A DNA stretch of 64,000 nt from an uncultured Gemmatimonadales bacterium (GTDB lineage Bacteria > Gemmatimonadota > Gemmatimonadetes > Gemmatimonadales > GWC2-71-9): NCBI GenBank assembly GCA_963722825.1, contig CAVROI010000003.1, forward strand, positions 1,879,764 through 1,943,763, read 5' to 3'. Positions 13,917-51,381 of the stretch are shown piece after piece. The position numbers were made by a program, and so were the translations under genes. How positions within the stretch are numbered: position 1 is the stretch's first letter; every line of letters begins with the position of its first letter. The notes below the pieces were generated by a model. That model ran no database searches. It saw only the letters and a list, made by a program, of their open reading frames with translations, and was not told where the DNA came from.

Positions 13917-14030
13917 CACCACCGACTCACCCTGCCGCCTCTGTCCGTCGGTGCATTGACGGCCGGCTCCCCGACCCCCATATAGATCCATCCCATCAAA
14001 CGTCCAGGCACCGCCAGGCAGGAGGCATCC

Positions 14031-16708: not shown

Positions 16709-19336
<2,628 letters not shown>

Positions 19337-19338
19337 GG

Positions 19339-29268: not shown

Positions 29269-29345
29269 GGTGATTCTCCTCGAGGGCCGAGAATGGCCAA
29301 GCCGCTCGGCCACCGCGAGCGGCGGAACGAGGCGACGAGCGGGTT

Positions 29346-35295: not shown

Positions 35296-35377
35296 GGATG
35301 CTCCTGGCTCTGAGACCCTCGTTACATTGTTGGCTCGCCGAACGCCGACTTGGAGAGCACAGCTGCGGATACCGCCA

Positions 35378-36640: not shown

Positions 36641-36642
36641 CG

Positions 36643-37581
36643 ATGACTCGTGAGGCTCCGGAAGCCTCGATCAATGGGGCCCACCGGCACGCCGGCTGGG
36701 TCGCCCTCGGGTCCCGGGCGCTTGGTTGGGCAGGCCGCCAATTCCGGGCGATCCGATGGCGACAGCTGGAGCAAGGCGCTCCACGACTACTGACCGTCTC
36801 CACGGCGAACGGGCGCCTCACGGTCAACACCGGGTACCGCCTGATGGCCCAGCGGTTGTACGTGGGGCGAGAGTACGAGTCGCACTTGATCGATGCCGCC
36901 ATCAAGGAACTGCGCCGCCGTGGCATGGCACCACCTGACGGGACGGCGCTGGACATCGGCGCCAACATCGGCGTCATCGGAATCGCGCTGGTCCTTCGTG
37001 GATACGCGGCGCGGGTCATCGCCGTCGAGCCCGAGGCGGCCAATTTCGAGCTGCTACTGCGCAATGTCGGGCAGAACGGCTTGACCCAGGCGATCCGCTG
37101 CGAGCGAGTGGCGTTGGGCACGGTGGAGGGATCCGTCCAGCTGGAGCTCTCCCCCGACAACTGGGGAGACCACCGCGTCCGGGGGCCTCTGGGCCCGGCA
37201 CCCGGTGCATACGGTGAGAGCTCGCGAGCGACGGTCACGGTTCCGGCTGCGACGCTGGATGGCTTGCTCGAGCGCGTGTGCCCAGCCGGGGAACGCCCGT
37301 CGCTCATCTGGATGGACGTTCAGGGGTTTGAGGGGCGCGTCCTGGCGGGCGGAACCCGCACCATTCAGGCAGGTGTGCCGGTGGTCGCAGAGTTCTGGCC
37401 GTACGGCATCCGCCGAAGCGGGATGGACCGGGACCAGTTCTGCGGGATCCTCGAATCGCTCTTCACCACCTTCGTGCTGCTCGGTGACGCGCCCACTACG
37501 CGGGACATCCGGGAGTTACGGCGGATGTTCGACGAGCTCGTGATCAGCACGCGACACCGCAACGTGTTGCTCCTGCCGTGA
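36643..37581 (+). CDS. FkbM-family SAM-dependent methyltransferase
   Basis: ALDIGANIGVIGIALV, VIAVEPEAANFELLLRNV and IWMDVQGFEGRVLAG follow the FkbM pattern. The ATG lies 3 nt after the GT9 stop. Confidence 0.8.
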   Translation: MTREAPEASINGAHRHAGWVALGSRALGWAGRQFRAIRWRQLEQGAPRLLTVSTANGRLTVNTGYRLMAQRLYVGREYESHLIDAAIKELRRRGMAPPDGTALDIGANIGVIGIALVLRGYAARVIAVEPEAANFELLLRNVGQNGLTQAIRCERVALGTVEGSVQLELSPDNWGDHRVRGPLGPAPGAYGESSRATVTVPAATLDGLLERVCPAGERPSLIWMDVQGFEGRVLAGGTRTIQAGVPVVAEFWPYGIRRSGMDRDQFCGILESLFTTFVLLGDAPTTRDIRELRRMFDELVISTRHRNVLLLP

Positions 37582-38984
37582 CCTGGGCCATCATCCAGCA
37601 GATCGGTGGGCAGGCGGCATCGTATGTGACCTTTCTCGTGCTGGCGCTTGTCCTCCGGCCGGAGGAGATCGGCGTGGTCGCGATGGCCAACGCCTGGCTC
37701 GCGATCATCGGTGGCTTTGCGGAGGCCGGACTCGGCGCCGCCCTTATCCAGCGCGAGCATCTTGCGCCCGCCCATGCGCACTCCGCCTTTGTCCTCAACA
37801 TCGCGACCGGGTTGGCGCTGGCCATGCTGGGTCTCCTGCTGTCGTGGCCGGCGTCGGTGTTCTTCCACAGCGCGGAGGTGAGGCCGGTGATGGCGGTGCT
37901 CTCGATTGGGTTCGTCATTCGCTCCTTCGGGTTGACCCAGGCCGCGCTCCTCCAACGCCGGCTCGACTTCAAGGCACTGGCCATTCGCGACACCCTCGCC
38001 AACGCGGCCGGCGGCGTCCTCGGCATCGCGCTGGCGTTGGCGGGCGGCGGGGTCTGGAGCTATGTCGGCATGAGCTTGGCCGTGGCGCTCGCGAGCGTCG
38101 TGCTGGTCTGGCGCTCGGTCGAGTGGCGGCCGCGAATCGGCGAGTTCTCCCGAACCCACGCTCAGGATTTGTGGGGGTATGGCTCGAGAGTCCTCGGCTT
38201 CAACCTTCTGAAGGCGTTCAGCCAGAATACTGATCGCCTCCTGCTGGGCCACCTGCTCGGGCCTTCGGCGGTCGGCAGCTACGCCCTGGCCTACCGTATC
38301 GTGATCTTTCCGGTGACCTCGTTCGCGAGCGCCATCTCGAATCATTTCTTCCCCCACATCTCCCGAATCCAGGCCGACCAGAAGGCCGTTCGCCTCGAGT
38401 ACACCCGCTACTTGCGCATCATTCTGAGCATCAGCTTCCCGTTGGCGCTGGCAGCGGCCCTGGCAGGTGGTCCGCTTCTCGGTATCGTGTTCGGACCGCG
38501 GTGGGCGGCGGCGGCACGCGTGATCCCGTGGCTCGCCCTGGTTGCCGTTGCCTGGGCGGTCTTCTCTCCGTTCGGGCAGCTGCTCAAGGGGCTGAACCGG
38601 CCGGGAGGGCTGATCATCTGGTCGGCGAGCTACACGGTGGTCACCTCCGCGGCGCTGGCGCTCGGGGCCGCCCGCGGGCTCGAGGGCGCTGCGGCCGCGT
38701 TCGCGGGCGCGAACGTGGTGCTGGTCCCCGTCGCCTACTGGCTGGGAAAGTTCTGGGTCGGAGTGACACCATCGGTGCGCATCGCGCTCTGGAGTCCGCT
38801 GCTGGCAGCGACCGCCGGTATGGCCACGGTGCTGGGCCTCGCTCGGATCGCGCTGACTGGTGCGAACGCGGTGCTGGTCGGCATCGCGGTCGCCGCCGGT
38901 GTCATGGTGTATCTCGTGCTCCTCCTCCGATTCGCTCCCGAGCTCGACCCGCGGGGAGCGGTCGTGATGCCGAAACGGCCCTAG
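37578..38984 (+). CDS. wzx: Polysaccharide flippase (MOP/Wzx family)
   Basis: A membrane protein of roughly 12-14 helices. The N-terminus (QQIGGQAASYVTFLVLALVLRPEEIGVVAMANAWL) and FAEAGLGAALIQRE are typical of Polysacc_synt proteins. Confidence 0.8.
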   Translation: MTWAIIQQIGGQAASYVTFLVLALVLRPEEIGVVAMANAWLAIIGGFAEAGLGAALIQREHLAPAHAHSAFVLNIATGLALAMLGLLLSWPASVFFHSAEVRPVMAVLSIGFVIRSFGLTQAALLQRRLDFKALAIRDTLANAAGGVLGIALALAGGGVWSYVGMSLAVALASVVLVWRSVEWRPRIGEFSRTHAQDLWGYGSRVLGFNLLKAFSQNTDRLLLGHLLGPSAVGSYALAYRIVIFPVTSFASAISNHFFPHISRIQADQKAVRLEYTRYLRIILSISFPLALAAALAGGPLLGIVFGPRWAAAARVIPWLALVAVAWAVFSPFGQLLKGLNRPGGLIIWSASYTVVTSAALALGAARGLEGAAAAFAGANVVLVPVAYWLGKFWVGVTPSVRIALWSPLLAATAGMATVLGLARIALTGANAVLVGIAVAAGVMVYLVLLLRFAPELDPRGAVVMPKRP

Positions 38985-38988: not shown

Positions 38989-39999
38989 ATGAACCAACCA
39001 GTCCCGAATGCCTCGCCGACCGATCGCGAAATGCTCAGCGACCACGAAGAGGTAAACCGACCGTGCTTCGTGTGCGGAGCCGACCGCAGCGAGGTCGGCT
39101 TCATTCCGGACGTGCAACGTTGGGGCCAGATGGACACGTTCGTGCTGAGGCGCTGCTGTGAATGTGGCCTGGTCTTCAACTCGCCGAGACTTCCCCGCGA
39201 GCGGCTCGGCGATCTCTACCGGCGCAACTACTATTTCTTCTCCCGACCGGCGGGGACGGAGTTCGAGCGAATCCGTGGTGCCTATCTCCGGACGGTGGCG
39301 CATCTGCCTCAGGCGACACCGGGGGCCTTGCTCGAGCTGGGCAGTGCCAAGGGGTACATGCTGGCACTCCTCGCCGGGCGAGGCTGGCGGGTGACCGGCG
39401 TCGAGATCGCCGAAGCCGCGGCACAGTTCAGCCGACGCCACTTCGGGGTGGAGGTATTCACCGGCACGCTGGAGGAGTTCCGTGGGACCGACGACCGCAG
39501 CTTTGACGTCGTGCTGGCTCAGGACGTGCTCGAGCACGTTTCCGAGCCCGGGCTATTCCTGAGGAGCGCTTACGATTGCCTGCGGCCCGGCGGATGGCTA
39601 ATCATCGACACGCCTAACGTCGGTGGCGCCAACGTCGGGCTCGTCGGAGCCAAGTGGCGTGGCTTTAATCCGTTTCACATCTACCTATTCGACCGCAGCT
39701 CGCTGACTCGAGCACTGAATCACGCCGGCTTCACCGTGCGGCTCCTCGGATCCTACAACACCGTGAGCCCGGAGGCTTCGGTCGTCGGCCACTCCCAGCG
39801 TCGCTCGAGAATTCCGGGAGTCATTGGACGGCTGCGCGCGAGGGTTCGCCAGCGCCTAGACCAGGCTCTGCTGCGGCGCTATCTTCGCCGCGCCATTCAG
39901 GTCGTGCAGACGGACCCACCGCAGCCCCTGGACCCGTTGTGCCGAGGGGACAACCTCGTGTGCATCGCCGTTCGACCCACGGAGCACCGCGCATCTTGA
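38989..39999 (+). CDS. Class I SAM-dependent methyltransferase with an N-terminal four-Cys zinc ribbon
   Basis: CFVCG...CCECG is followed by SAM motif I (LLELGSAKGYM), then DVVLAQDVLEHV and LRPGGWLIIDTPN. Confidence 0.8.
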   Translation: MNQPVPNASPTDREMLSDHEEVNRPCFVCGADRSEVGFIPDVQRWGQMDTFVLRRCCECGLVFNSPRLPRERLGDLYRRNYYFFSRPAGTEFERIRGAYLRTVAHLPQATPGALLELGSAKGYMLALLAGRGWRVTGVEIAEAAAQFSRRHFGVEVFTGTLEEFRGTDDRSFDVVLAQDVLEHVSEPGLFLRSAYDCLRPGGWLIIDTPNVGGANVGLVGAKWRGFNPFHIYLFDRSSLTRALNHAGFTVRLLGSYNTVSPEASVVGHSQRRSRIPGVIGRLRARVRQRLDQALLRRYLRRAIQVVQTDPPQPLDPLCRGDNLVCIAVRPTEHRAS

Positions 40000-40796
40000 C
40001 CGATCAATATTTGCCAGACGACGCCGCGCCCTCTCAGACCGCGGATGCACTCCGCCACACAAGGAACAAGAACATCGTCGTGGAAGCCGGCCGGCGGACC
40101 TTCCGGCAGCGGCTCGCGGATCGCTTCTGGCTGCTGTCCACTCGAGCCAGGGAAGCGTCGCTCCTGGCGGGCGGGGTTTCGGTCATCGTTTCCGAGCAGG
40201 TCATCGAGAACGCGTTTCTGCTTCGAGAGCTCGACTCGTCGGTGCGGACCGTGCTCGACTTCGGCGCCTTCGAGTCGACCCTGCCCCTCGCGCTCGCCGC
40301 TCTTGGCCTGAAGGTGACGGTCGTCGACCAGCGCCGGTATCCGTTCGCAGCGGAGCGCTTGCGGGTCGTGCAGCACGACATCCTCCAGCCGCTGGATCTC
40401 CTTCCCTCCGACTTCGACGTGGTGTACTCCATCTCGACAATCGAGCACGTGGGCCTGGGCCACTATGGCGATCCGAACCGCGGAGAGGGCGATCAAATCG
40501 CCTTGGCGCATCTGTGGGAGAAGGTGAAGCCCGGCGGCCGGCTGATCTTCTCGGTCCCTGCCGGACGGCCGAGCGTCCAGCGGGGATATCGTGTGTACGA
40601 CGAACCGGCGCTGCGAAAGATCATGCCCCACGAGGGCCGGATCTCGTTCTTCGAGAAGGGTGGTCGCAGGGGCGTGTGGAGAGGGACCACTCCGGGCGAG
40701 ATCGCCGCCCATGAATACGAGAACTATCTCACCCAGGCCCCCTCCGAGGGAGTCGCGATCATCACCATCAGGAAGCCCTCGATACAAGTCGGGTAG
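39996..40796 (+). CDS. Putative SAM-dependent methyltransferase (DUF268-like fold)
   Basis: VLDFGAFESTLPLALAALGLKVTVVD, FDVVYSISTIEHVGLGHYGD and KPGGRLIFSVP are present. The proposed TTG start at 39996 overlaps the previous stop. The track start at 39939 is the alternative. Confidence 0.6.
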   Translation: MTDQYLPDDAAPSQTADALRHTRNKNIVVEAGRRTFRQRLADRFWLLSTRAREASLLAGGVSVIVSEQVIENAFLLRELDSSVRTVLDFGAFESTLPLALAALGLKVTVVDQRRYPFAAERLRVVQHDILQPLDLLPSDFDVVYSISTIEHVGLGHYGDPNRGEGDQIALAHLWEKVKPGGRLIFSVPAGRPSVQRGYRVYDEPALRKIMPHEGRISFFEKGGRRGVWRGTTPGEIAAHEYENYLTQAPSEGVAIITIRKPSIQVG

Positions 40797-40901: not shown

Positions 40902-41972
40902 TTGGCAGTTCAGCGAACCCTGACCATCGATGGCGTGGAGATATCCGAGGCGAGCGACTGCTACGTCATCGCCGAGATCGGCCACAACCATCAGGGCCAG
41001 ATCGAGAAGTGCAAGGAGCTCTTCCGTGTGGCCAAGGAATGCGGGGTCGACGCGGTGAAGCTGCAGAAGAGGGACAACCGGTCGCTCTTCACGCGCGCGA
41101 TGTACGACAAGCCCTACGACAACGAGAACAGTTTCGGCGCCACGTACGGTGAGCACCGGGAGGCGCTCGAGTTCGGCCGCGACGAATACCTGGAGCTTCG
41201 GGCCTATGCCCGGGACCTCGGCGTCACCTTCTTCGCGACCGTGTTCGACGTCCCGAGCGCCGACTTCCTGGCCCGACTGGACATGCCGGCGTACAAGATC
41301 GCCTCGGGCGATCTCAAGAGCACGCCGCTGCTCCGCCACGTCGCCGCGTTCGGCAAGCCGATGATCGTGAGTACCGGCGGTGCGACCATGGATGATGTCG
41401 CCCGCGCCTACGATGCAATCGTTCCGATCAATCCGCAACTCTGCTTTCTCCAGTGCACCGCGGCGTACCCGGCGTCGCCCGAAGACCTGAATCTCAAGGT
41501 CATCTCGACCCTGCGAGCCAAGTATCCTGATCTGGTCATCGGGCTGTCAGACCACGAGAACGGCATCGCCATGGCGGTGGCCGCCTACGTGCTCGGGGCG
41601 CGAATCGTCGAAAAGCATTTCACGCTCAACCACACCTGGAAAGGCACCGACCATCCGTTCTCACTGGAGCCAATCGGGATGCGGAAGCTGGTGCGCGACC
41701 TGCGCCGCACCCGCGAGGCGCTCGGGAACGGGATCAAGTGCCCGCTTCCGACCGAGCGGGGTCCGCTAGTGAAGATGGGCAAGAAGCTGGTGGCGGCTCG
41801 CGCCCTCGGCGTCGGACACGTCCTGACCTCCGATGACGTGGCCGTGAAATCGCCGGGTGACGGACTGCCCCCATATCTCATCGATCAGGTACTGGGCCGA
41901 ACACTCACGAAGCCGCTCCAGCCCGACGATTCGATCACCTTCGAGATGCTGGCCCAGGGCGAGGGGGAATGA
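40902..41972 (+). CDS. Sialic-acid-synthase-family PEP-condensing enzyme with a C-terminal SAF domain, NANS (sugar-phosphate) type
   Basis: VIAEIGHNHQGQIEKCKELFRVAKECGVDAVKLQKR, FGATYGEHREALEF, CFLQCTAAYPASPEDLNLKVIS, GLSDHENGIAMAVAAYVLGARIVEKHFTL and TWKGTDHPFSLEP are present. The start is TTG, with GGAGGGA upstream. Confidence 0.85.
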   Translation: MAVQRTLTIDGVEISEASDCYVIAEIGHNHQGQIEKCKELFRVAKECGVDAVKLQKRDNRSLFTRAMYDKPYDNENSFGATYGEHREALEFGRDEYLELRAYARDLGVTFFATVFDVPSADFLARLDMPAYKIASGDLKSTPLLRHVAAFGKPMIVSTGGATMDDVARAYDAIVPINPQLCFLQCTAAYPASPEDLNLKVISTLRAKYPDLVIGLSDHENGIAMAVAAYVLGARIVEKHFTLNHTWKGTDHPFSLEPIGMRKLVRDLRRTREALGNGIKCPLPTERGPLVKMGKKLVAARALGVGHVLTSDDVAVKSPGDGLPPYLIDQVLGRTLTKPLQPDDSITFEMLAQGEGE

Positions 41973-42769
41973 CCCGTCCGCTGGACGGGCGCATCGGGGT
42001 CGTGACCGGCGCGCTCGGGCGGTTGGGACCGGTCTGGTGTGCGGCGCTGCTGGACGCAGGCGCAAAGGTTTACGCGCTTGATCTTCCGGGCGCGACATCC
42101 TCAGCGCCATTCACCGACCTTCAGCGACGCGCGGGAGAGCGACTCGTCTCTCTTCCGGCCGATGTGCTCGATCGGGCTTCCCTCGTGGCGGCGCTCGAGC
42201 GGTGCGAGCGGGATGGCGGAACCCCTGCCGTGCTCGTGAACAATGCCGGCATCGATCAGCCGCCGGGGCCCGCCACGACCTACAGGATCGAGGACGTTCC
42301 GCTCGACCTGTTCCGAGGGACGGTGGACGTGAACCTGGCCGGCGCCTTTCAGGCCGCGCAGGTTTTCGGCGCCGCCATGGTTCGCGCAGGACGCGGCTCG
42401 ATCGTAAACATCGGGTCCCTCTACGCCTCGGTCTCGCCCGACGCCCGGTTCTACGATCATCTCCCGACCGACCCTCCCTTTCTCAAGCCCCCCGCCTACG
42501 GCGCCTCGAAGGCCGCCCTCGTCAATCTGACCCGGTACCTCGCGACCCATTGGGGGCCGAGCGGTGTCAGGGTCAACGCCCTTTCTCCGGGCGGCGTCGA
42601 GGGAGGACAGGATCCGGAGTTCAAGCGTAAGTTCGTTGCCCGCGTGCCCTTGGGTCGGATGGCCGGCCCCCAGGACCTGGGAGGAGCGCTTATATTCCTC
42701 GCGTCCGATGCCTCCTCGTATGTCACCGGCGTCGAATTGCGGGTCGACGGCGGGTTCACTTCCTGGTGA
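41969..42769 (+). CDS. SDR-family oxidoreductase
   Basis: The glycine motif is VTGALGRLG. NNAG and the catalytic YGASKAA are present. The start overlaps the synthase stop (ATGA). Confidence 0.8.
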   Translation: MTRPLDGRIGVVTGALGRLGPVWCAALLDAGAKVYALDLPGATSSAPFTDLQRRAGERLVSLPADVLDRASLVAALERCERDGGTPAVLVNNAGIDQPPGPATTYRIEDVPLDLFRGTVDVNLAGAFQAAQVFGAAMVRAGRGSIVNIGSLYASVSPDARFYDHLPTDPPFLKPPAYGASKAALVNLTRYLATHWGPSGVRVNALSPGGVEGGQDPEFKRKFVARVPLGRMAGPQDLGGALIFLASDASSYVTGVELRVDGGFTSW

Positions 42770-42794
42770 GGGCCCGCGCGACTCCCAGCCGGCC

Positions 42795-44267
42795 ATGGTG
42801 GATCTGAATCTTCCCCCGATAATTCTCAATGTCGTGAACGGTCGTGAAGTGGGCGCGCTCGCCGGGGAGCAGTTCGAGAAGCGCGCTCCCGCGACCGGTC
42901 GCACGCTCGTCCAAGTAGCCCGCTCGCGCATTGCCGACGTCCAGGGCGCGGTGGCCGCCGCACGCTGCGCCCAGCCTGCATGGGCCGACGCCACCGTGAC
43001 GAGCCGTGGGGACGTGCTACGTGCCATCGCGCTCGCGCTCAACGAGCGCCGGGATGAGGTAGCGCAACTCGTGGCCCTCGAGACCGGCAAGTCCCTCAAA
43101 GATGCCCGGGGGGAGACGACCGCCGCCGTCGAGATGGGAATGTTCGTGGCCGGCGAAGGGCGGCGGTTCTACGGCCGGACGACTACCAGCGCCGTGCCCA
43201 ACAAGACGGCTCTCACCGTCCGCCAGCCCATTGGAGTGGCGGGACTCATCATCGCCGCCAATACGCCCATCGCCAACGTGGCCTGGAAGGTCTTTCCGGC
43301 GCTGCTCTGCGGGAATGCCGCGGTGCTCAAGGCGTCGGAGGACACGCCGCTGAGCGCCTGGGCGTTCGCGCGTCTCGCGGCCGACGCCGGCCTGCCGCCC
43401 GGTGTGCTCAATGTCATTCACGGATTCGGCGAAGAAGCCGGGGCCCCACTCGTGGAGTCCCCCGACGTGGATCTGATCAGCTTCACCGGCTCCGCGGCGG
43501 TGGGCCGGTACATTGGCAGGACGGCGGGCGAGCGGCTCGCCAAGGTCTGCCTCGAGCTTGGCGGCAAGAACCCGCTCATCGTCTGTGACGATGCCGACCT
43601 CGACCGGGCGGTGGAGTCCGCGGTGCTGTCGGCCTTCAGCAACGCCGGACAGCGCTGCGCGGCCGGCAGCCGTCTCATCGTCTTCGACGCGGTGTACGAG
43701 CGTTTCCGCGAGCGCCTGCTGGCGCGCGTGTCGCGCCTGCGGGTGGGCTGCTCGGACGACGATGACTTCGGCCCGGTAATCAACGAAGCGCAGCTCGACG
43801 GTATGTGCGCCGCCATCGAGACGGCGCGGAGAGCCGGCATTCGAGTCATCGCCGGTGGCCGCCGCGTGACCGGGGCCGGGTACGATGGCGGGTATTTCCT
43901 CGAGCCGACCCTCCTCGAAGACGCGGCGCCCGACGCCGACGTCTCTCGCACCGAGCTGTTCGGCCCTATTTCCGTCCTCTATCGAGTGTCCGACTTCGAC
44001 GCGGCCCTGCGGCTGGCGCACGATTCTCCCTACGGGCTCACCGCCTCGATCCACACCGCCAGCATCCACCGGGCGATGACGTTCCTGAACCGCATCCGGT
44101 CGGGAGTAGCGGTCGTCAACGGCGCAACCTACGGTAGCGAGCCTCACCTCCCGTTCGGCGGGCTGGGCGATTCCGGCACCGGTTGGCGCGAGGCTGGGAC
44201 CGAGGCGCTCGACGTCTATTCCGAGTGGAAGACGGTGTACCTCAACCACGATCCGCGTGCCGTCTGA
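42795..44267 (+). CDS. NAD(P)-dependent aldehyde dehydrogenase
   Basis: VCLELGGKNP carries the catalytic Glu. NAGQRCAAGSRL carries the catalytic Cys. FTGSAAVGR and EPHLPFGG are also present. I chose the ATG at 42795 inside the longer track ORF. Confidence 0.88.
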   Translation: MVDLNLPPIILNVVNGREVGALAGEQFEKRAPATGRTLVQVARSRIADVQGAVAAARCAQPAWADATVTSRGDVLRAIALALNERRDEVAQLVALETGKSLKDARGETTAAVEMGMFVAGEGRRFYGRTTTSAVPNKTALTVRQPIGVAGLIIAANTPIANVAWKVFPALLCGNAAVLKASEDTPLSAWAFARLAADAGLPPGVLNVIHGFGEEAGAPLVESPDVDLISFTGSAAVGRYIGRTAGERLAKVCLELGGKNPLIVCDDADLDRAVESAVLSAFSNAGQRCAAGSRLIVFDAVYERFRERLLARVSRLRVGCSDDDDFGPVINEAQLDGMCAAIETARRAGIRVIAGGRRVTGAGYDGGYFLEPTLLEDAAPDADVSRTELFGPISVLYRVSDFDAALRLAHDSPYGLTASIHTASIHRAMTFLNRIRSGVAVVNGATYGSEPHLPFGGLGDSGTGWREAGTEALDVYSEWKTVYLNHDPRAV

Positions 44268-45048
44268 CCGGCCGGAGGTTCCGGCCTGCGTTGCGCTGAT
44301 TCCGGCCCGGTCAGGATCGAAGCGGGTGCCGGGCAAGAATGTCCGCCCGCTGGCCGGGCACCCGCTCATGGCGTATACCATCGCCGCGGCCGTCGAGAGC
44401 AGGGTGTTCGCCGCCGTGATCGTCTCCACCGACTCGGCGGAGATCGCGGACATCGCGCGCCATTACGGAGCCGAGACGCCCTTCCTGCGTCCGGCGGCCA
44501 TGGCCGCCGATCTCTCGCCCGATATCGAGTGGGTCCGCTACACGCTCGACACGCTGCGGCAGATGGGTCGCGCCTGGGAGAGCTTCAGCATCCTGCGGCC
44601 CACGAGCCCCTTTCGCCAAGCCGACACCATTCGCCGCGCCTGGCGTGAGTTCACGGCCGCGGAGGCGATCGATTCGCTGCGCGCCGTCGAGCTCTGCCGG
44701 CAGCACCCGGGGAAGATGTGGGTCCTGGAGGCCGGCCGGATCGTCCCGCTGCTCCGGGATGGGCCGACGTCTCCACCCTGGCACAGCATGCCGTATCAGG
44801 GCCTTCCCACGGTGTACATTCAAAATGCAAGCCTGGAGATCGCCTGGTCCCGCACGGTTCGGGAGAAGGGCTCGATCGCGGGAACGGTCATTCATCCGTT
44901 TCTCACCGAAGGCTACGAGGGGTTCGACGTGAACGATTCGAGAGACTGGTCGTACGCGGAGCTTCTCCTCGAGGAGGGCAAGGCTACGCTGCCGCACGTC
45001 GGCGTCGAGGCCTGGCGCCCTTCGGCCGCGGGCGTGGACGCTCCATGA
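44257..45048 (+). CDS. CMP-sugar (acylneuraminate/ulosonate) cytidylyltransferase
   Basis: ALIPARSGSKRVPGKNVRPLAGHPLMAYTI is the CTP_transf_3 N-terminal signature. VSTDS and ILRPTSPFR are also present. Confidence 0.85.
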   Translation: MPSDRPEVPACVALIPARSGSKRVPGKNVRPLAGHPLMAYTIAAAVESRVFAAVIVSTDSAEIADIARHYGAETPFLRPAAMAADLSPDIEWVRYTLDTLRQMGRAWESFSILRPTSPFRQADTIRRAWREFTAAEAIDSLRAVELCRQHPGKMWVLEAGRIVPLLRDGPTSPPWHSMPYQGLPTVYIQNASLEIAWSRTVREKGSIAGTVIHPFLTEGYEGFDVNDSRDWSYAELLLEEGKATLPHVGVEAWRPSAAGVDAP

Positions 45049-46961
45049 GCACGCTTCGCTTTGTTCCGCTGAAAGAGCTCGAACGCGCGCGGACGCTCTC
45101 CGGCGACGCGGCCATCCGTGTCGCGCTCTTCTCCGCCCTCTGCCGCATCAACACGTTGTACATGATCGCGCGCGCCGGCTCCGGCCACATCGGGAGCAGC
45201 TTCAGCAGCCTCGACATCGTGGCCTGGCTGCACCTTCAAGAGATGCGACAGGGGCCGGCCACGCACGACCGGTTCTTTTCCTCGAAGGGCCATGATGTCC
45301 CCGGCCTGTACGCCGTGCTGATCGGGCTGGGGCGCTTGCCGTTCGAGAGCATCCACACGCTTCGCCGGCTCGGCGGGCTCCCCGGTCATCCCGACGTCGC
45401 CACTCCCGGAATGGTCACCAACACCGGGCCACTCGGCATGGGAGTATCCAAGGCGAAGGGAATGGTGCGAGCCAACCGTCTCGCGGGCCGGGACAGCCGG
45501 ATCTTCGTCATGACGGGCGACGGGGAGCTTCAGGAAGGCCAGTTCTGGGAGTCGCTCGCGTCGGCAGCCCACGCCCGGATGAGCGAGATCACGGTGATCG
45601 TGGACCACAACAAGGTCCAGTCGGACACGCTTGTTTCGTCGGTGAGTGATCTCGGGAATCTGGCCGCCAAATTCGAGGCGTTCGGCTGGCATTGCGTCCG
45701 TTGCGACGGGCATGACTTGGCCGCGCTGGGTGCTACCTTCGACCGGCTGCGGCGGGTGGCCGACCGACCGAAGATCATCCTCGCGGATACGATCAAGGGG
45801 CGTGGCGTCTCGTTCATGCAGCACACGGCACTGGAGCCCGGCGAGAAATTCTACCGGTTTCACAGTGGCGCTCCCGACGACCCCACGTACGAGCGGGCCG
45901 CCGCCGAGCTGATCGCCTCGGCCAACCAGATGCTCGCGCGTGCTGGCGCTGCGCCGCTGAATCTCGAGGAGAGCCCGCGACCGCCACGACCGGGCATTCA
46001 AGGCGCTCAGCGACTGATCCCGGCCTACTCCCGGGCCCTCGTCGCGCACGCGGAGCACAACCCGCGGCTCGTGGCTCTCGATGCCGACCTGCTGCTGGAC
46101 ACCGGACTGATCCCGTTCTCCGAGCGCTTTCCCGACCGATTCATCGAGTGCGGCATCGCCGAGCAGGACATGGTCTCCCAGGCGGGTGGACTCGCCCTCA
46201 GCGGGTATCTACCGGTCGTGCACTCGTTCGCCTGCTTCCTGTCCACTCGCGCGAACGAGCAGATCTACAACAACGCGACCGAGCGCAGGAAGATCGTGTA
46301 CGTGGGCTCGCTGGCCGGGCTACTTCCCGGCGGGCCGGGTCACTCGCACCAATCGGTTCGCGACGTGGCGGCGCTGGGGGGGACCCCGGGCCTCGAGATG
46401 ATCGAGCCATCGTGCGAGGACGAAGTCACCCAGGCCGTGGCGTACGCTCTGGATCCCACCGGGCCGAGCGCGTATCTCCGACTGGTGTCCATCCCGTGCC
46501 AGGTGCCGTTCAGGTTGCCCGCGGGTTATCGACTCGAGCGGGGGAGGGGTGTCGCTCTTACGCCGGGAGACGACGCGGTGATGTTCGCCTACGGTCCCGT
46601 GATGTTGTCGGAGGCATGGAAGGCGGCGGCGCTGCTGCGGGAGCGCAAGGATATCGGACTCCGGATCGTGAACCTGCCCTGGCTCAACCTCGTAGATGAC
46701 GACTGGCTCGAGGAAGCGCTGTCGGGTATCAATCTCGTCTTTGCCCTCGACGATCATTATGTCGAGGGAGGGCAGGGGCAGATGCTGGCGAGCCGGATTG
46801 CCGAGCTCGGTCTGACCGACTCGATGACCGTGAGGCGATTCGGTGTTCGCGATATTCCCGCCTGCGGCCAGAATGACGAAGTACTTCGGGCGCATCGTCT
46901 CGACGCCGAAAGTCTGGCGGAAGACGTGGCCGCGGTTCTCACCGCCGGTCCGGCCGCCTGA
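45045..46961 (+). CDS. Single-chain transketolase-family ThDP enzyme (N- and C-terminal halves fused, about 638 aa)
   Basis: GSGHIGSSFSSLDIV is present. The ThDP/Mg motif is TGDGELQEGQFWES...IVDHNKVQSD. The pyrimidine-binding half contains FIECGIAEQDMVSQAGGLA and PGHSHQS. ATGA overlaps the cytidylyltransferase stop. Confidence 0.85.
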   Translation: MSTLRFVPLKELERARTLSGDAAIRVALFSALCRINTLYMIARAGSGHIGSSFSSLDIVAWLHLQEMRQGPATHDRFFSSKGHDVPGLYAVLIGLGRLPFESIHTLRRLGGLPGHPDVATPGMVTNTGPLGMGVSKAKGMVRANRLAGRDSRIFVMTGDGELQEGQFWESLASAAHARMSEITVIVDHNKVQSDTLVSSVSDLGNLAAKFEAFGWHCVRCDGHDLAALGATFDRLRRVADRPKIILADTIKGRGVSFMQHTALEPGEKFYRFHSGAPDDPTYERAAAELIASANQMLARAGAAPLNLEESPRPPRPGIQGAQRLIPAYSRALVAHAEHNPRLVALDADLLLDTGLIPFSERFPDRFIECGIAEQDMVSQAGGLALSGYLPVVHSFACFLSTRANEQIYNNATERRKIVYVGSLAGLLPGGPGHSHQSVRDVAALGGTPGLEMIEPSCEDEVTQAVAYALDPTGPSAYLRLVSIPCQVPFRLPAGYRLERGRGVALTPGDDAVMFAYGPVMLSEAWKAAALLRERKDIGLRIVNLPWLNLVDDDWLEEALSGINLVFALDDHYVEGGQGQMLASRIAELGLTDSMTVRRFGVRDIPACGQNDEVLRAHRLDAESLAEDVAAVLTAGPAA

Positions 46962-47659
46962 TGCTGGTCTTCTGGGACATCGACGGCACCTTGCTGACCA
47001 CCGGGCGCGCGGGAATCTTCGCGTGGGAGGAGGCTTTGAGTGAGGTCGCCGGAATCGATGCCGATCTCGAGACGTTCGATACCGCCGGCATTCCGGACTT
47101 CGGCATCGCGCGGCGACTGCTCGGTGAATATGCCGGCGAGGCCGATCCCACCGCCGATGCGGTCCGGCGCCTCGTCACGGCCTACGAGGACCGCCTTCCT
47201 GCCGCTCTCTCGCGCCGGCAGGGACGGGTCCTTCCCAATGTGCGTGAGATCCTGGTGGCGCTGACGACTGAGCCTGGAGCGCACTCGATGCTCCTCACGG
47301 GAAACACCCGCCGAGGGGCGGATGCAAAACTCCGCCACTACCGACTGGCGGAGTTCTTCCACGAAGGTGCTTTCTCGGAGGGCGACCTCGACCGGGAAGC
47401 CATCGCCGGCGTCGCTCTCGAGCGCGCCACATCGGCAGGCTATGGCGCTGACATCTCTCGCATCTTCGTGGTCGGTGATACGCCGCACGACGTACGGTGC
47501 GGCCGGTCGATCGGAGTGAGAACCGTCGCCGTGGCGACCGGCGGATACGACGAGGCCGCCCTGGCCGCCTCCGGTGCGTGGAAGGTGCTGCCGGAGCTGC
47601 CGCCGGCCGGAGAGTTCCTCGCGCTGCTCTCGGGCCGTGAGGTCTCGGCCGATGCCTGA
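46961..47659 (+). CDS. HAD-superfamily phosphatase (capped, subfamily IA-like)
   Basis: Motif I is FWDIDGTLL. LLTGNTR and the motif IV region VVGDTPHDVRCG are present. The start overlaps the transketolase stop by 1 nt (TGATG). Confidence 0.8.
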   Translation: MLVFWDIDGTLLTTGRAGIFAWEEALSEVAGIDADLETFDTAGIPDFGIARRLLGEYAGEADPTADAVRRLVTAYEDRLPAALSRRQGRVLPNVREILVALTTEPGAHSMLLTGNTRRGADAKLRHYRLAEFFHEGAFSEGDLDREAIAGVALERATSAGYGADISRIFVVGDTPHDVRCGRSIGVRTVAVATGGYDEAALAASGAWKVLPELPPAGEFLALLSGREVSADA

Positions 47660-49091
47660 CGCCACCGTGCTCGCGTCGGCACCGTTCCCGCTCGCGCTCC
47701 GCAACTTCGTGCCGACCGGCCTGGCGTCCGAGCTCGAGGCACGCTTCGGGGTGCGGGTTCGGTTCGTATCGCCCTATGCCCAGCCCGAGTTTACCGATGG
47801 AGCCGGCCACTCGTTCCTCAACTTCGCGGTCGCGGCTTCCGCCGGGGCCAACGGCGTGCCCGCACTCGCTGGAGTCACCGCGCTCGATCGAGCATTGAAG
47901 AGCATCCATCTCACCGGCTTCGCGATGGAATATCCCGACGGCAGCCTCCAGAATCTCGAGCTCAGCCGCCGTCACTCGGCCCAGAACCAGGTCGCGCGCA
48001 TCCTCGCCATGCTGGCGCCGCGCGCCTCCGGACGCAGGCAATGGCTCAGGCGGGTTGCGGCCCTGTATCGTCCCGCCCGCCGACAGATTCAGGATGCCTT
48101 CGATCGGACGAATCCGGCGATGGTGCTCGTCGCCTCTCCCGGGCACTACTGGCTCGACCACTTTGTCCTTGACGAGGCCGCGCGCCGGCGGATTCCCAGC
48201 GTGTGCGTCGTCCTCAGCTGGGACAATCTCTACTCGCGCGGCCCGATGTGCCGCCGGCCGGACCATCTCCTTGTCTGGAGCGAGGAGATGCGGCGACAGG
48301 CGATGACGATCCACCAGTATCCGGAGAACCGGATCGGAGTGGTCGGCCCGCTCCAGTTCCGGTTCTACGCCGAGCCACCGACAGCGGAGGAGCTCGGCGC
48401 GATGCGCCGGCGGATCGGTCTCGGCCCGGCGGAGCCGTTTATCGCCTATGTGTGCGGCGTACGCACCGCGCGGTACGACGTCGAAGACGTGACCGCCATG
48501 CTCGATGCGCTCGCCCACGGCCCATACCGTGATTTCAAGGTGGTCGTTCGCCCTCATCCCCAGGGATCCCGCGAGGCATACGAGGCACTCAGAACCCGCG
48601 GAGTGCTGCTCGACCCGTCTCCGGATCTGACGCATGAGGAAGCCCAGCCCGAGGCGCTCGACACCGAGGCCATCCGCCACATGGCGAGTCTCCTCGACGG
48701 CGCCCACTTCGTGGTGAGTAGCTGGGGGACCACCGCGCTGCTCGAGGCCTGCATCTTCGACACGCCCAGCGTACAGCTTCGCTGGATGGACGCTCTGCCA
48801 CACAGCGTGCCGGAGGAAGTCCAGCTCGTCCGGGATTTCCAGCGATACATCCACATGCGGGCGTTCGACGCCACCGGCGCCCGACCCTACTGCGATCGGC
48901 CCGAGACGCTCAATGCGATTCTGGCCGATCTCGAATCTCGAGCCGACGAATTCTCCCGGAGACGGGCGGAGGCCGTCGGGCTCCTGGCTCACTTGCCGCT
49001 GGGCGACGTGGTCCAGCGAGTCTGCGAGAGACTCCGCCCCGTGCTCCCCCAGGCGACCGTACGGCCGCCGCTCGTGCAGGTGGCCCGATGA
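47652..49091 (+). CDS. Uncharacterised GT-B-like protein with an HP motif, a candidate CMP-ulosonate glycosyltransferase
   Basis: A soluble-looking 479-aa protein. VCVVLSWDNLYSRG, LLVWSEEMRRQ, and KVVVRPHPQGS are present (H302-P303, nt 48555-48560). Its organisation resembles sialyl/beta-Kdo/TagF-like transferases. The family assignment is inference. Confidence 0.45.
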   Translation: MPDATVLASAPFPLALRNFVPTGLASELEARFGVRVRFVSPYAQPEFTDGAGHSFLNFAVAASAGANGVPALAGVTALDRALKSIHLTGFAMEYPDGSLQNLELSRRHSAQNQVARILAMLAPRASGRRQWLRRVAALYRPARRQIQDAFDRTNPAMVLVASPGHYWLDHFVLDEAARRRIPSVCVVLSWDNLYSRGPMCRRPDHLLVWSEEMRRQAMTIHQYPENRIGVVGPLQFRFYAEPPTAEELGAMRRRIGLGPAEPFIAYVCGVRTARYDVEDVTAMLDALAHGPYRDFKVVVRPHPQGSREAYEALRTRGVLLDPSPDLTHEEAQPEALDTEAIRHMASLLDGAHFVVSSWGTTALLEACIFDTPSVQLRWMDALPHSVPEEVQLVRDFQRYIHMRAFDATGARPYCDRPETLNAILADLESRADEFSRRRAEAVGLLAHLPLGDVVQRVCERLRPVLPQATVRPPLVQVAR

Positions 49092-50554
49092 CTTTCTTTC
49101 TGGTGAGCGTGATAGGCTATACCGCGCTGGTCGCCTGGCTCGCCGATCGGGTCCAGGCGACTCCGGCGGAATGGGCCTTCACTCTTGGGCACCTGGTCCT
49201 CGCGGCAGCCCTCAACGCCTACCTTCTCCGTGTGGCGCGGTTGCGATCGCTCAGCCTGCTCGGTTCCGCGCCGCTCGTGTTTCTGCTCGTCTCGCAGATC
49301 TACTTCACCGTCAACGGCCTCAAGTACTTCTCACCGATCCTGCTCTTCCCTCAGTTCGAGCTCAGCCTGGGGGCGCAATTCCTCGGGTCGGTGGCCGGGG
49401 GAGTGGTGCTGTTCCTGTGCGCGAGCCTGCTGCTCTGGCAGCGAGGACCGACCTCGGAGCGGATGCTGGACTGGCTCAAGGTCAACCGTGCGGACCTCCG
49501 CCGACTCATGGTGGTCACCTCACTCGGCTCGCTCGGCTCGAAGGCTCTCCTGATTTGGCTGGGATACGGCTCCGCGTACACCGACACCGCCTACAACGAG
49601 GCCGCGGTGCGCAGCTACGGAGACTTCTTCATTCTCCTCGCCAACGACACCTTTGGCCTCCTGTCGATGTATCTCGGGCTGGTATTCCTCCTCCGGCCGC
49701 GCGGCCGGGACCGCTACCGGCCGCTCTCGGTGATGATCGCGCTGGCGGCCTTCATGGCGCATTTCCTTTATGCCCTCGTGTACCTTCGGGCGAGAATGAT
49801 TCTTCTGGTGGCCTTCGTGATGTTCGCTGCCGCCTCGGAAGTCCGGTCGCGGAAGCTGGCTGAACGCGCGCTCAAGACCATGTTCGTCTCCCTGCCCGCC
49901 CTATCGATGCTTGGGGTTCAGCTCACGCTTCTCCTGGGGCGAGTGAACCTTCCGGAAGACACCAGTACGCGATTGGCGATCGCAGCCGTGAACCGGCGGG
50001 CCGACCTCACGGATTTCGCGACGGCCATCGTCGTAAATTCGGGCGGGCAGGCCCACGATGCAGGAATCATCACGTCGGCAATTCTGAACGCCGTGCCGCG
50101 CGTGCTCCTGCCGGACAAGGAAGCGCTCGTCAAGGATGTCTACTCGGACGTCCTGGGCAAGTATCTCGGGTGGCCCGCCTACGTCGATCACCAGATCGTC
50201 GAGGACTATCAGGATTCGGCGTTCAGCGCAGGGGTGATGTCGCTGGGGATACCCGGTTTCGTGCTGGTGCCCATGGGGCTGATCCTGCTCTTCTACGCCG
50301 TCTCCCGCTGGCTGGAGCGTAAGGTGAGCGGGCCCGCCTACGGGCTGGCGATGATGGCGCTCTGGCTTTCCGCCCTGCGGGTCGAGATAGAGTGGGCCAA
50401 CATTCCTTTCAGTTTTCGTCAGGCGCTGATGATCGGGTTGGCGAGTTGGATCCTGCTGGCAACCATCCGCTCGCTCCACGGGGCGCTGGTCGTCGCTGCG
50501 GGGCCACGGCGACCGCTGATCGGGGCGGCACTTCCACGCGACGCCGAGGCCTGA
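49088..50554 (+). CDS. Polytopic membrane protein, probable O-antigen/EPS polymerase (Wzy-like)
   Basis: More than 10 hydrophobic segments and a large loop. It sits in a Wzx-containing cluster and its ATGA overlaps the upstream gene. Wzy families are too divergent for a motif call. Confidence 0.55.
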   Translation: MTFFLVSVIGYTALVAWLADRVQATPAEWAFTLGHLVLAAALNAYLLRVARLRSLSLLGSAPLVFLLVSQIYFTVNGLKYFSPILLFPQFELSLGAQFLGSVAGGVVLFLCASLLLWQRGPTSERMLDWLKVNRADLRRLMVVTSLGSLGSKALLIWLGYGSAYTDTAYNEAAVRSYGDFFILLANDTFGLLSMYLGLVFLLRPRGRDRYRPLSVMIALAAFMAHFLYALVYLRARMILLVAFVMFAAASEVRSRKLAERALKTMFVSLPALSMLGVQLTLLLGRVNLPEDTSTRLAIAAVNRRADLTDFATAIVVNSGGQAHDAGIITSAILNAVPRVLLPDKEALVKDVYSDVLGKYLGWPAYVDHQIVEDYQDSAFSAGVMSLGIPGFVLVPMGLILLFYAVSRWLERKVSGPAYGLAMMALWLSALRVEIEWANIPFSFRQALMIGLASWILLATIRSLHGALVVAAGPRRPLIGAALPRDAEA

Positions 50555-50556: not shown

Positions 50557-51381
50557 ATGGCGGTCTCGCGCGATTTCACCAACCGGTTGACCTGGGAAGA
50601 GAAGGCCCGCAAGAATCCCTTGTGGGCCGTCATGTCGGTCGACGAGTTCGCCGGCGCCGACGGCGAGCCGGCATCATGGACGCCGGAACAGCTGGCGCTC
50701 TTCTTCGGGAAGGGCCGGTCGCTGTTCGAGATCTTCATCCGGCCGGCGCTGCTGCGCGCCGGGCTCGTGCCCGGACAGGCATTCGTCCTGGAGTACGGCA
50801 GCGGGATGGGGCGGGTACTCAAGGCGGTGCACGACGCGGGATACCGGTGCGCCGGAGTAGACATATCGGAGACAATGCTGCGGCACAGCCGCCGGCTCGT
50901 CCCCGAGGTCGATGAGTTGTACGCTCTGCCATCGGATGGTCGGATCCCTGTGGCCGACGGATCGGTCGACTACGTGTACTCCTACGCGGTCCTGCAGCAC
51001 ATCGAGCGTCGCGGGCTGGTCCGTAAAGCGGTTGGGGAAATGTGCCGTGTTCTCAAGCGGGGCGGGTTGATCCGGCTGCAGTTTCAGCCCGGCTCCATGC
51101 CGTTCGGCGGCAGGCTGCACGGGGTTACCCACGCGGTCAACCTCGAGCATCGCAGTCTCGTCTTTCGGTGGGTCGATCTTCGGAGACGCTGGTCTGTGCC
51201 GGCATGGATACCGCCGCTGCCGGTGGTTCTTCTGCAGCGACACAATCACTGGAGCGGCGTCCCGCTCAGTTGGCGAACGATGAGACATTTCCTCAAGGAG
51301 GGCGGCGTCCGGCTCCTGAGTCTCGAGCGCGACGCGACTGCCGAGTGGAACAGTGTCTGGTTGCTGGGAAGGAAGGGATAG
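50557..51381 (+). CDS. Class I SAM-dependent methyltransferase
   Basis: Motif I is VLEYGSGMGRV. VDYVYSYAVLQHI and LKRGGLIRLQF are present. The ATG lies 3 nt after the previous stop. Confidence 0.8.
   Translation: MAVSRDFTNRLTWEEKARKNPLWAVMSVDEFAGADGEPASWTPEQLALFFGKGRSLFEIFIRPALLRAGLVPGQAFVLEYGSGMGRVLKAVHDAGYRCAGVDISETMLRHSRRLVPEVDELYALPSDGRIPVADGSVDYVYSYAVLQHIERRGLVRKAVGEMCRVLKRGGLIRLQFQPGSMPFGGRLHGVTHAVNLEHRSLVFRWVDLRRRWSVPAWIPPLPVVLLQRHNHWSGVPLSWRTMRHFLKEGGVRLLSLERDATAEWNSVWLLGRKG

Follow-up and report, generated by a model that had tools for sequence, protein, structure and literature searches.

A conserved gene cassette with a transketolase-like enzyme that may make a CMP-activated, side-chain-truncated ulosonic acid

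Introduction

What does a transketolase do in a gene set for an activated sugar acid? This question is raised by a cassette of seven genes in a 64,000-nucleotide stretch of DNA from an uncultured Gemmatimonadales bacterium (GCA_963722825.1, contig CAVROI010000003.1), referred to here at its full length as the window. The cassette (40902-49091) encodes a NeuB-family phosphoenolpyruvate (PEP)-condensing synthase, a short-chain dehydrogenase/reductase (SDR), an aldehyde dehydrogenase (ALDH), a cytidylyltransferase that would make cytidine monophosphate (CMP)-sugars, a fused transketolase-like thiamine diphosphate (ThDP) enzyme (TK), a capped haloacid dehalogenase-type (HAD) phosphatase, and a protein with a GT-B fold, designated P7. 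To our knowledge, few routes to ulosonic acids are known; these acids, among them the sialic acids, 3-deoxy-D-manno-octulosonic acid (Kdo), and the pseudaminic (Pse) and legionaminic (Leg) acids, are key surface sugars. An earlier note on this DNA had described the cassette as an atypical, possibly undescribed pathway to a CMP-activated 3-deoxy-ulosonic acid, in which TK may make an unusual aldose phosphate for the synthase.

In this study, we examined the cassette by profile searches, comparison of loci, residue mapping and structure prediction. We give an even chance to the reading that the cassette makes a CMP-activated, side-chain-truncated 3-deoxy-hept-2-ulosaric acid with a second carboxyl group, resembling 3-deoxy-D-lyxo-hept-2-ulosaric acid (Dha). 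TK would then act after the synthase and trim the finished sugar acid.

Results

The cassette is one operon and a conserved functional unit

The window has a G+C content of 64-72%, and the closest relatives of its proteins are found in Gemmatimonadales metagenome bins. Calls of open reading frames (ORFs) in the window placed the seven cassette genes on the plus strand in one direction and confirmed their junction overlaps (Table 1). The synthase and SDR genes share an ATGA overlap (41969-41972), the ALDH and cytidylyltransferase genes overlap by 11 nt (44257-44267), the cytidylyltransferase and TK genes are joined by ATGA (45045-45048), the TK and HAD genes by TGATG (46959-46963), and the HAD and P7 genes overlap by 8 nt (47652-47659). 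P7 is joined in turn by ATGA (49088-49091) to a gene for a polytopic membrane protein. The sole spaced junction in the cassette is a 25-nt spacer between the SDR stop codon and the ALDH ATG. The longest ORF for ALDH begins at 42564, and the ATG at 42795 was preferred as its start because a close relative (locus L003, 75-84% identical) has a 490-aa gene call. The synthase gene begins with TTG, with GGAGG 8-9 nt 5' of the start codon. No promoter-like or terminator-like sites were found inside 40902-49091. Six of the junctions overlap or abut, and the interior holds no match to a promoter or terminator, so that the seven genes form a single operon.

We then scanned for relatives of TK in one genome per species. 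The scan gave at least 586 matching stretches, which places the cassette in hundreds of species, and 80 loci were kept. They span Gemmatimonadota, Acidobacteriota, Chloroflexota, Cyanobacteriota/Melainabacteria, Alpha-, Beta- and Gammaproteobacteria, Myxococcota, Methylomirabilota, Planctomycetota, Verrucomicrobiota, Actinomycetota, Patescibacteria and Bdellovibrionota. Partners were counted in the 59 loci, from about 12 phyla, that had at least 6 kb upstream and at least 1.5 kb downstream of TK. SDR was the most frequent partner (53/59), followed by the NeuB-family synthase (51/59), ALDH (48/59) and the cytidylyltransferase (47/59). All four were present at 43 of the 59 loci, and the usual order at these was NeuB-SDR-ALDH-CMP-transferase-TK. 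Counts anchored on NeuB were made in 18 metagenome loci with at least 6.5 kb downstream. SDR, the cytidylyltransferase and TK were each present in 18/18, ALDH in 17/18 and HAD in 14/18, and NeuB relatives at 56-84% identity always had SDR, the cytidylyltransferase and TK downstream. These results demonstrate that the cassette is a conserved functional unit and not a chance neighbourhood. Co-conservation had been proposed in the earlier note as the way to tell whether TK, ALDH and SDR are mere neighbours of the synthase, and the set held together from both anchors.

In several loci of Acidobacteriota and Actinomycetota (L058, L062, L069 and L080), SDR, TK and ALDH also lie in an unbroken block away from NeuB; there, NeuB and the cytidylyltransferase are more distant and of another clade. 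This suggests that the three enzymes form a tailoring module. A locus of Cyanosarcina radialis (L001, 5005-14357) carries ALDH, a methyltransferase, a radical S-adenosylmethionine/SPASM protein, a cytidylyltransferase, TK, a capped HAD and a 564-aa protein.

Enzyme families of the cassette

Families were assigned by Pfam and NCBIfam profile searches, with the curated equivalog cut-offs as threshold. None of the cassette proteins reached an NCBIfam equivalog cut-off. The synthase matched PF03102 (260.8 bits, 1.4e-77) and the SAF domain PF08666 (37.2 bits), and it belongs by Pfam to the NeuB family and not to the KdsA type. It scored below the cut-offs of NeuB_NnaB (TIGR03569, 285.5 vs 399.65 bits) and PseI (TIGR03586, 227 vs 340.25 bits), and its nearest PDB entries were SpsE, PseI and NeuB. 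For the cytidylyltransferase, the top NCBIfam match was PseF (135 bits vs a cut-off of 205.7), the KdsB models gave about 29-47 bits, and the nearest PDB entries were CMP-sialic acid synthetases of the NeuA type, not KdsB.

The SDR has the motifs TGxxxGxG and Y177xxxK181, and its residue 38, where beta-2 ends, is acidic. Of 123 relatives, 109 have D and 11 have E at this position, 120 in all, and we therefore regarded the enzyme as of the type that uses nicotinamide adenine dinucleotide (NAD). Its nearest solved or named relatives, all below cut-off, were polyol and galactitol dehydrogenases, gluconate 5-dehydrogenase and KduD, which oxidise the carbon adjoining a terminal CH2OH. ALDH matched PF00171 at 1.2e-149 and kept the catalytic motifs ELGGK and GQRC. 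Its top NCBIfam matches were alpha-ketoglutaric semialdehyde and 2,5-dioxovalerate dehydrogenases (413.6 vs 770 and 411.9 vs 750), so that its nearest named relatives act on 2-oxo-acid semialdehydes.

Two types of HAD phosphatase accompany the cassette. The capped type of the window, whose nearest PDB entry is 2hcf, was found at 18 of the 59 TK loci, in Gemmatimonadota, Acidobacteriota and some others. A small KdsC-like HAD of about 170 aa lies between NeuB and SDR in 14 further loci of the 59 and belongs to the versions from Proteobacteria, Chloroflexota and Melainabacteria; the isolate Ciceribacter sichuanensis S101, for example, has the order NeuB - small HAD - SDR - ALDH - cytidylyltransferase - TK. 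Since two unrelated HAD types serve in different lineages, the product of the synthase is likely phosphorylated at its far end. The synthase products of the routes through 9-phosphates of N-acetylneuraminic acid (Neu5Ac) and of 3-deoxy-D-glycero-D-galacto-non-2-ulosonic acid (Kdn) are phosphorylated in the same place.

The earlier note had listed the seven coupled genes with their overlaps and had named a NANS-type synthase, an SDR, an ALDH, a cytidylyltransferase, a fused transketolase and a capped HAD. Every overlap was found again, and the Pfam and NCBIfam searches agree with these family calls.

Active-site residues of the transketolase-like enzyme

TK carries PF00456, PF02779 and PF02780 in a single chain. 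Its nearest PDB entry was human transketolase (4kxu, 1e-61), and it scored below the NCBIfam transketolase cut-offs (best NF004559, 363.7 vs 488; TIGR00232, 139 vs 682). We mapped its residues by HMMER alignment to human transketolase, and conservation was read over 85 family sequences from all phyla. H48, K81, H83, H115, D159, N189, Q192 and E373 of TK correspond to human H37, K75, H77, H110, D155, N185, Q189 and E366, and H273 lies in an invariant FHSGAP motif that corresponds to human WH258GKP and is preceded by an 8-residue insertion. The cofactor, metal and catalytic residues (H48, K81, H83, H115, D159, N189, H273 and E373) were invariant in the 85 sequences. Judged from these residues, TK should still handle a ketol (dihydroxyethyl-ThDP) intermediate.

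The residues at the positions for the sugar phosphate and the acceptor hydroxyl were different. Arg318, Ser345, His416, Arg474 and Asp424 are among the active-site residues of human transketolase (PMC8016368). Four of them were replaced in 85/85 TK sequences: Ser345 by Asp352, His416 by Leu423, Arg474 by Ser482 and Asp424 by Pro431. Position 482 was Ser in 77/85, and the counterpart of Arg318 (position 323) was variable (R/N/K). D352, L423, P431, G432, H433, S434, H435, Q436 and R479 were invariant, and the segment PGGPGHSHQ stands in place of human GEDGPSQ. From work on the yeast and E. coli enzymes we take Arg318, Ser345, His416 and Arg474 to bind the substrate phosphate, and Asp424 to contact the 2-hydroxyl of the acceptor. 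In transketolases, the two subunits of the dimer meet at the active site. Since the phosphate-binding counterparts are replaced, and the residues for ThDP, metal and ketol are kept, an ordinary sugar phosphate is unlikely to be the substrate of TK.

In a plasmid collection, one true member of the TK family was found, in Streptomyces sp. NBC_01237 (52% identity). The other plasmid matches were ordinary split transketolases at 32-36% identity and, besides these, one partial match (38% of the query at 45%).

Replacement of the aldehyde dehydrogenase by an aminotransferase

At five loci (L030, L033, L041, L047 and L084), ALDH was absent and a class-III aminotransferase was present. Four of these are from Polyangiaceae (Myxococcota) and retain NeuB, SDR and TK; their layout is given in Table 1 with the coordinates of L041. 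Probing with the Polyangiaceae aminotransferase found relatives in other loci, and a Nitrosomonadaceae locus (L027, 16291-18328) has a second pair of cytidylyltransferase and aminotransferase genes beside an ALDH cassette. The fifth locus is that of Streptomyces sp. NBC_01237, whose aminotransferase had no relatives in the other loci when used as a probe. Its NeuB, SDR and TK genes are followed by genes for an RmlD-like reductase, a HAD, the class-III aminotransferase and a LuxR regulator. The trio is preceded by genes of the HmaS-like, Hmo-like and class I/II aminotransferase kinds, as for hydroxyphenylglycine, and an AMP-binding enzyme, an O-methyltransferase and a P450 are encoded on the opposite strand. 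No ALDH and no cytidylyltransferase were found between about 2700 and 21000 of this locus. The surroundings look like a natural-product gene cluster, and the trio may provide a building block of an unusual kind, an amino acid or a sugar acid.

Both ALDHs and class-III aminotransferases act on aldehydes. The exchange of one for the other therefore suggests that the synthase, phosphatase, SDR and TK together probably yield an aldehyde, whose fate as carboxylate or amine is set by the final enzyme. The variant of the Polyangiaceae type would predict an omega-amino truncated ulosonic acid.

Proposed pathway

On the basis of these results, we propose the following pathway. The synthase would condense a hexose 6-phosphate and PEP to a Kdn-9-phosphate-type acid; as the cassette has no amino-sugar-making gene, mannose 6-phosphate would be the simplest choice. 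The HAD phosphatase would then free the terminal hydroxyl, and the NAD-type SDR would oxidise the penultimate C8 hydroxyl to give a ketose-like tail, HOCH2-C(=O)-CH(OH)-. TK could cleave this tail between C7 and C8, so that C8 and C9 leave as dihydroxyethyl-ThDP, to an acceptor or as glycolaldehyde, and an aldehyde remains at C7. ALDH would turn the aldehyde into a carboxylate (C7H10O8, a sialic-acid-like ring whose side chain has given way to a carboxyl group), and in the aminotransferase lineages it would become an omega-amine instead. The NeuA-like cytidylyltransferase would make the CMP-sugar, at a place relative to the SDR, TK and ALDH steps that the proposal does not fix. P7 would transfer the sugar to the growing repeat unit, which would be flipped by Wzx and exported. 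The CMP-heptulosaric acid predicted in this way has a computed [M-H]- of 526.072.

This route calls on every enzyme a single time, and the chemistry dictates their order, because the phosphate must leave before the ketol forms and the ketone must precede ThDP cleavage. The stereochemistry of Kdn also suits it. In the Fischer projection of Kdn, the C7 hydroxyl stands on the right and the C6 hydroxyl on the left, and both invert on turning the chain; 8-keto-Kdn read from C9 has the D-threo configuration at C3/C4, as transketolase donors require. The 9-deoxy-7-amino sugars Leg and Pse could not be such donors, which fits the absence of amino-sugar genes. An aminotransferase, an N-acetyltransferase or a NeuC-type epimerase, none of which the earlier note had seen either, were not found among the Pfam-scanned ORFs at about 29.7-64 kb, of which the ORF at 34126-35295 had no match. 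Relatives of the cassette in other phyla likewise have no NeuC and no set of dehydratase, aminotransferase and N-acetyltransferase by the synthase.

A wider form of the proposal is that members of the widespread TK family, with SDR and ALDH or an aminotransferase, trim the glycerol side chain of Kdn-type acids to C7 in a periodate-like manner and cap it with a carboxyl or amino group. We hold this more tentatively, at somewhat short of an even chance.

Several points weigh against the pathway. We infer the sequence of the steps as well as the hexose and the product's stereochemistry. The remodelled channel of TK would also have to serve an acceptor for the C2 unit, and the invariant Asp352 adds a negative charge near the expected place of the substrate's far end, which is awkward for a carboxylated one. 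SDR and ALDH score far under the cut-offs of the named enzymes that they resemble, and both superfamilies switch substrate easily; ALDH could instead detoxify the released glycolaldehyde. A C4 of the sialic-acid type, starting from mannose, would lead to the L-arabino isomer and not to natural D-lyxo Dha. Since the Asp that governs acceptor stereochemistry in canonical enzymes is Pro431 in TK, we take no side on a D-lyxo product. Some TK loci are without NeuB or SDR within 10 kb: five of the 59 have none of the counted partners. The Cyanosarcina radialis locus is likewise without NeuB or SDR within 10 kb of TK, where either the synthase lies elsewhere in the genome or another substrate is trimmed. 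Lastly, P7 occurs only in close relatives, and its fold resembles the UDP-GlcNAc 2-epimerases equally.

Alternative explanations

The proposal of the earlier note can be extended to a complete route. TK would act first and supply an unusual aldose phosphate, the synthase and the HAD phosphatase would follow, SDR would oxidise the terminal alcohol, and ALDH or the aminotransferase would give a full-length ulosaric or omega-amino acid. Such a route employs all seven families, expects the co-conserved phosphatase, and also explains the exchange of ALDH for an aminotransferase; oxidation followed by transamination at a terminal carbon is known for 8-amino-Kdo (Kdo8N). However, we consider it unlikely. 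Supply of the precursor needs phosphorylated substrates, but the counterparts of the residues for phosphate and the acceptor 2-hydroxyl are lost in 85/85 TK sequences. The aldose phosphates that a transketolase releases, namely glyceraldehyde 3-phosphate, erythrose 4-phosphate and ribose 5-phosphate, are already abundant from central metabolism, whereas the products new to the cell would be ketoses and so no substrates for NeuB. Enzymes closest to SDR oxidise secondary and not primary alcohols, and the SDR-TK-ALDH block occurs apart from NeuB. The exchange of ALDH for an aminotransferase further implies that the aldehyde probably arises after the synthase. Trimming of the finished sugar acid by TK thus fits the evidence better than supply of an aldose phosphate. 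The part of the earlier proposal that stands is a co-conserved cassette for a CMP-activated 3-deoxy-ulosonic acid, and the part that finds no support is TK as supplier of the precursor, upstream of the synthase.

TK might also perform other ThDP chemistry, either a decarboxylation like that of 1-deoxy-D-xylulose-5-phosphate synthase (DXS), giving a 2-deoxy-aldose for ALDH to oxidise, or a C2 branch or extension, with a donor such as hydroxypyruvate, on a keto or aldehyde group that SDR has made. TK does score on DXS models (DXP_synthase_N 1.4e-11, 44.6 bits; dxs 155 bits), and its substrate channel is remodelled. A preprint (bioRxiv 10.64898/2026.04.20.719630) reports higher-carbon CMP-ulosonic acids from Magnetospirillum. 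However, the transketolase models by far outscore those for DXS, with 363.7 vs 155 bits in NCBIfam and 114 vs 44.6 bits for the N-terminal domain in Pfam, and TK has, as invariant residues, the His pair or set by which a ketol donor is held at its C1 hydroxyl. A NeuA-type cytidylyltransferase needs a 2-keto acid, which decarboxylation would destroy, and a branch or extension would leave ALDH or the aminotransferase without an aldehyde. This chemistry appears improbable.

That the cassette is a known pathway (CMP-Kdn, Neu5Ac, Leg, Pse or Kdo) with SDR, ALDH and TK as mere neighbours is very improbable, even though a synthase, a phosphatase and a cytidylyltransferase make up the CMP-Kdn set and the Pfam families are common, because SDR, ALDH and TK occur with NeuB and the cytidylyltransferase across phyla whichever anchor is used and are translationally coupled, TK is not a housekeeping enzyme, no equivalog cut-off is reached, the synthase is not of the KdsA type, and NeuC, aminotransferase and acetyltransferase were not found in the scanned ORFs. 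This agrees with the earlier note, which had separated the gene set from those for Neu5Ac, Leg, Pse, Kdo and plain Kdn and had called it possibly new: profile searches and a reading of open-access literature and preprints matched it to no characterised pathway.

Comparison with known systems

The CMP-Kdn pathway of Bacteroides thetaiotaomicron and vertebrates consists of Kdn-9-phosphate synthase, its phosphatase and CMP-Kdn synthetase. The cassette resembles it in its NeuB-family synthase, its HAD phosphatase and its NeuA-like cytidylyltransferase, and in lacking amino-sugar genes. It differs by the added, co-conserved and coupled SDR, TK and ALDH, by its phosphatase, which in the window is a capped HAD and not of the small KdsC-like type, and in that none of its proteins reaches an equivalog cut-off. 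Given the three co-conserved enzymes, the end product of the cassette is probably not Kdn. The known part of the system is a core like that for CMP-Kdn, and the new part is the tailoring module of SDR, TK and ALDH placed on a CMP-ulosonic pathway.

In Shewanella, Kdo8N is made by the oxidase KdnB and the aminotransferase KdnA. There, as proposed for the cassette, the ulosonic acid is completed first and then modified by way of an aldehyde at its end, and the aminotransferase variants of the cassette would be alike at the last step. However, the aldehyde of the cassette is proposed to come from C2 cleavage by SDR and TK, not from direct oxidation of a terminal alcohol, the main version would oxidise the aldehyde to an acid, and the enzyme families differ.

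TK shares with canonical transketolase (EC 2.2.1.1; human TKT, 4kxu) the fused chain of three domains, about 30% similarity over the full length, and the ThDP, metal and catalytic residues. It differs in the Asp, Leu, Ser and Pro at Ser345, His416, Arg474 and Asp424, the variable Arg318 site, the 8-residue insertion, scores below every NCBIfam cut-off, and its place in glycan or natural-product clusters.

Dha is a constituent of plant rhamnogalacturonan II, and a 2025 review lists its synthesis and activated form as unknown (PMC12168206). In the part of PMC5713287 that cites Russa et al. 1991, it is also placed in lipopolysaccharide (LPS) cores of Rhizobiaceae. Like Dha, the predicted product is a seven-carbon 2-keto-3-deoxy diacid with a pyranose ring, presumably nucleotide-activated. 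Unlike Dha, it would be another diastereomer (L-arabino) if made from mannose 6-phosphate with a C4 of the sialic-acid type. Among open-access papers and preprints, we found none on this gene set or on the function of the TK clade, and on ulosaric or heptulosaric acids only plant, algal and review papers; subscription journals may differ.

If the proposed pathway is correct, it would be the first known biosynthetic route to CMP-activated 3-deoxy-heptulosaric acids of the Dha type, a concrete candidate for a synthesis that PMC12168206 lists as unknown, and a role in glycan biosynthesis that is new for ThDP ketol cleavage. Soil and water bacteria of about a dozen phyla would then carry new dicarboxylic, and in some lineages amino, heptulosonic sugars in their envelopes, and the trio of Streptomyces and myxobacteria would feed natural-product or amino-sugar-acid pathways. 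The cassette also supplies candidate enzymes for making truncated sialic-acid analogues.

P7 and the surrounding polysaccharide cluster

P7 had no Pfam match and no match to PDB sequences in single-sequence or profile searches. Its AlphaFold2 model (mean predicted local distance difference test score, pLDDT, 91.3) has two Rossmann-like domains in a GT-B fold, and Foldseek matched it to MshA, UDP-GlcNAc 2-epimerases, TagF, BshA and MurG (E about 1e-10 to 1e-8, template-modelling score 0.45-0.55). The P7 family is small, with 150 matches, all unnamed and close to Gemmatimonadales, and has the invariant motifs R-P-H-P-Q-G (the HP motif) and SSWGTT...E. The fold and the RPHPQG motif bear out the earlier description of P7 as a GT-B-like protein with an HP motif. 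NF046086, the BFO_1060 family, was matched weakly by 22 of 32 P7 relatives (best 5e-7) and TIGR04396 by 17 of 32; P7 of the window itself gave 15.3 bits on NF046086 vs a cut-off of 200. The BFO_1060 orthologues Tanf_01245 and TFUB4_00887, which carry an HP motif, are transferases for Pse or Leg derivatives in Tannerella forsythia, as proven by knockout (PMC5420450). P7 shares with these enzymes (Tanf_01245/TFUB4_00887/BFO_1060) the GT-B/TagB-like fold, the HP motif and a place in a glycan locus by CMP-ulosonic genes, but it lies far below the 200-bit cut-off and has no Pfam domain and no PDB sequence match.

From the predicted fold and these motifs, P7 is a reasonable candidate for the transferase of the CMP-activated sugar acid. 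As it is lineage-specific, other phyla must use other transferases. We also considered P7 as a NeuC-like epimerase, to which the 2-epimerase matches in Foldseek could point; given the HP motif and the matches to BFO_1060 and TIGR04396, this is less likely. In a 723-aa protein from a JGI metagenome (P0198), a capped HAD is naturally fused to the GT-B protein. Such a fusion hints that both act in one pathway or complex. The membrane protein coupled to P7 had no Pfam match and was kept only in the close relative L003. It is possibly a polymerase of the Wzy type.

As shown in Table 1, the cassette sits inside a Wzx-type surface-polysaccharide cluster. Four methyltransferases flank it (one FkbM-type, two class-I and one DUF268-like), and three are conserved in L003; heavy O-methylation of the polysaccharide, or else of the new sugar acid, is therefore probable.

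Table 1. Features of the cassette, its surroundings in the window, and two variant loci (coordinates of the variants refer to their own loci or records)
Feature	Position	Strand	Length	Basis or remark
rmlA/C/D/B	30750-34198			Pfam
ORF between rmlB and GT9	34126-35295	+	389 aa	predicted ORF; no Pfam match, no hydrophobic segments
Glycosyltransferase GT9 (heptosyltransferase-like)	35114-36640			
FkbM methyltransferase	36517-37581			
Wzx-type flippase	37578..38984	+		PF13440, PF01943
Two methyltransferases directly before the cassette	38989-39999, 39939-40796			
NeuB-family PEP-condensing ulosonic acid synthase	40902..41972	+	356 aa	PF03102+PF08666, C-terminal SAF
Classical SDR, NAD-type	41969..42769	+	266 aa	adh_short/adh_short_C2
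ALDH	42795..44267	+	490 aa	PF00171
CMP-ulosonic acid synthetase (cytidylyltransferase)	44257..45048	+	263 aa	PF02348 (CTP_transf_3)
Fused transketolase-like ThDP enzyme (TK)	45045..46961	+	638 aa	Transketolase_N, Transket_pyr, Transketolase_C in one chain
Capped HAD phosphatase	46961..47659	+	232 aa	HAD, HAD_2 and Hydrolase Pfam matches; DIDGT motif
P7, GT-B-fold protein with HP motif	47652..49091	+	479 aa	AlphaFold2, Foldseek
Polytopic membrane protein	49088..50554	+	488 aa	about 9-10 hydrophobic segments; ATGA-coupled to P7
Methyltransferase after the membrane protein	50557-51381			
GT4	at 51204			
Two GT2	at 52635 and 53572			
Epimerase	at 54414			
WecA-like initiating transferase	at 55406			
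Wzz	at 56533			
PglF-like dehydratase	57800-59707			without aminotransferase partner
Wza-like exporter	59710-62373	-		
Variant cassette (L041)	4672-11947			cytidylyltransferase, class-III aminotransferase, SDR, small HAD, NeuB, fatty-acid-hydroxylase-family protein, TK; without ALDH
Streptomyces sp. NBC_01237 (L084)	NZ_CP108509.1 806973-832856	reversed		NeuB-SDR-TK at 10108-13956; unannotated record

Upstream of the cluster, on the minus strand at 28132-29313, lies a gene of the isocitrate-lyase/PEP-mutase superfamily that scored 146 bits for isocitrate lyase (ICL) and 69 bits for PEP_mutase; it is probably unrelated to the cassette. With a PhnX-like HAD match, this gene brought a phosphonate pathway into consideration. 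We rejected it, as the gene is on the opposite strand, beyond the bounds of the cluster, and fits the isocitrate-lyase family better; no phosphonopyruvate decarboxylase was present, and there were no phosphonate genes near 28132-29313.

A CpsB/CapC-like protein and a SIS-domain (GmhA-like) protein are encoded further upstream (19224-20968), and in L003 a PfkB kinase gene adjoins the GT9 gene. GT9, the GmhA-like protein and PfkB suggest that the cluster is linked to the synthesis of a heptose-containing LPS core.

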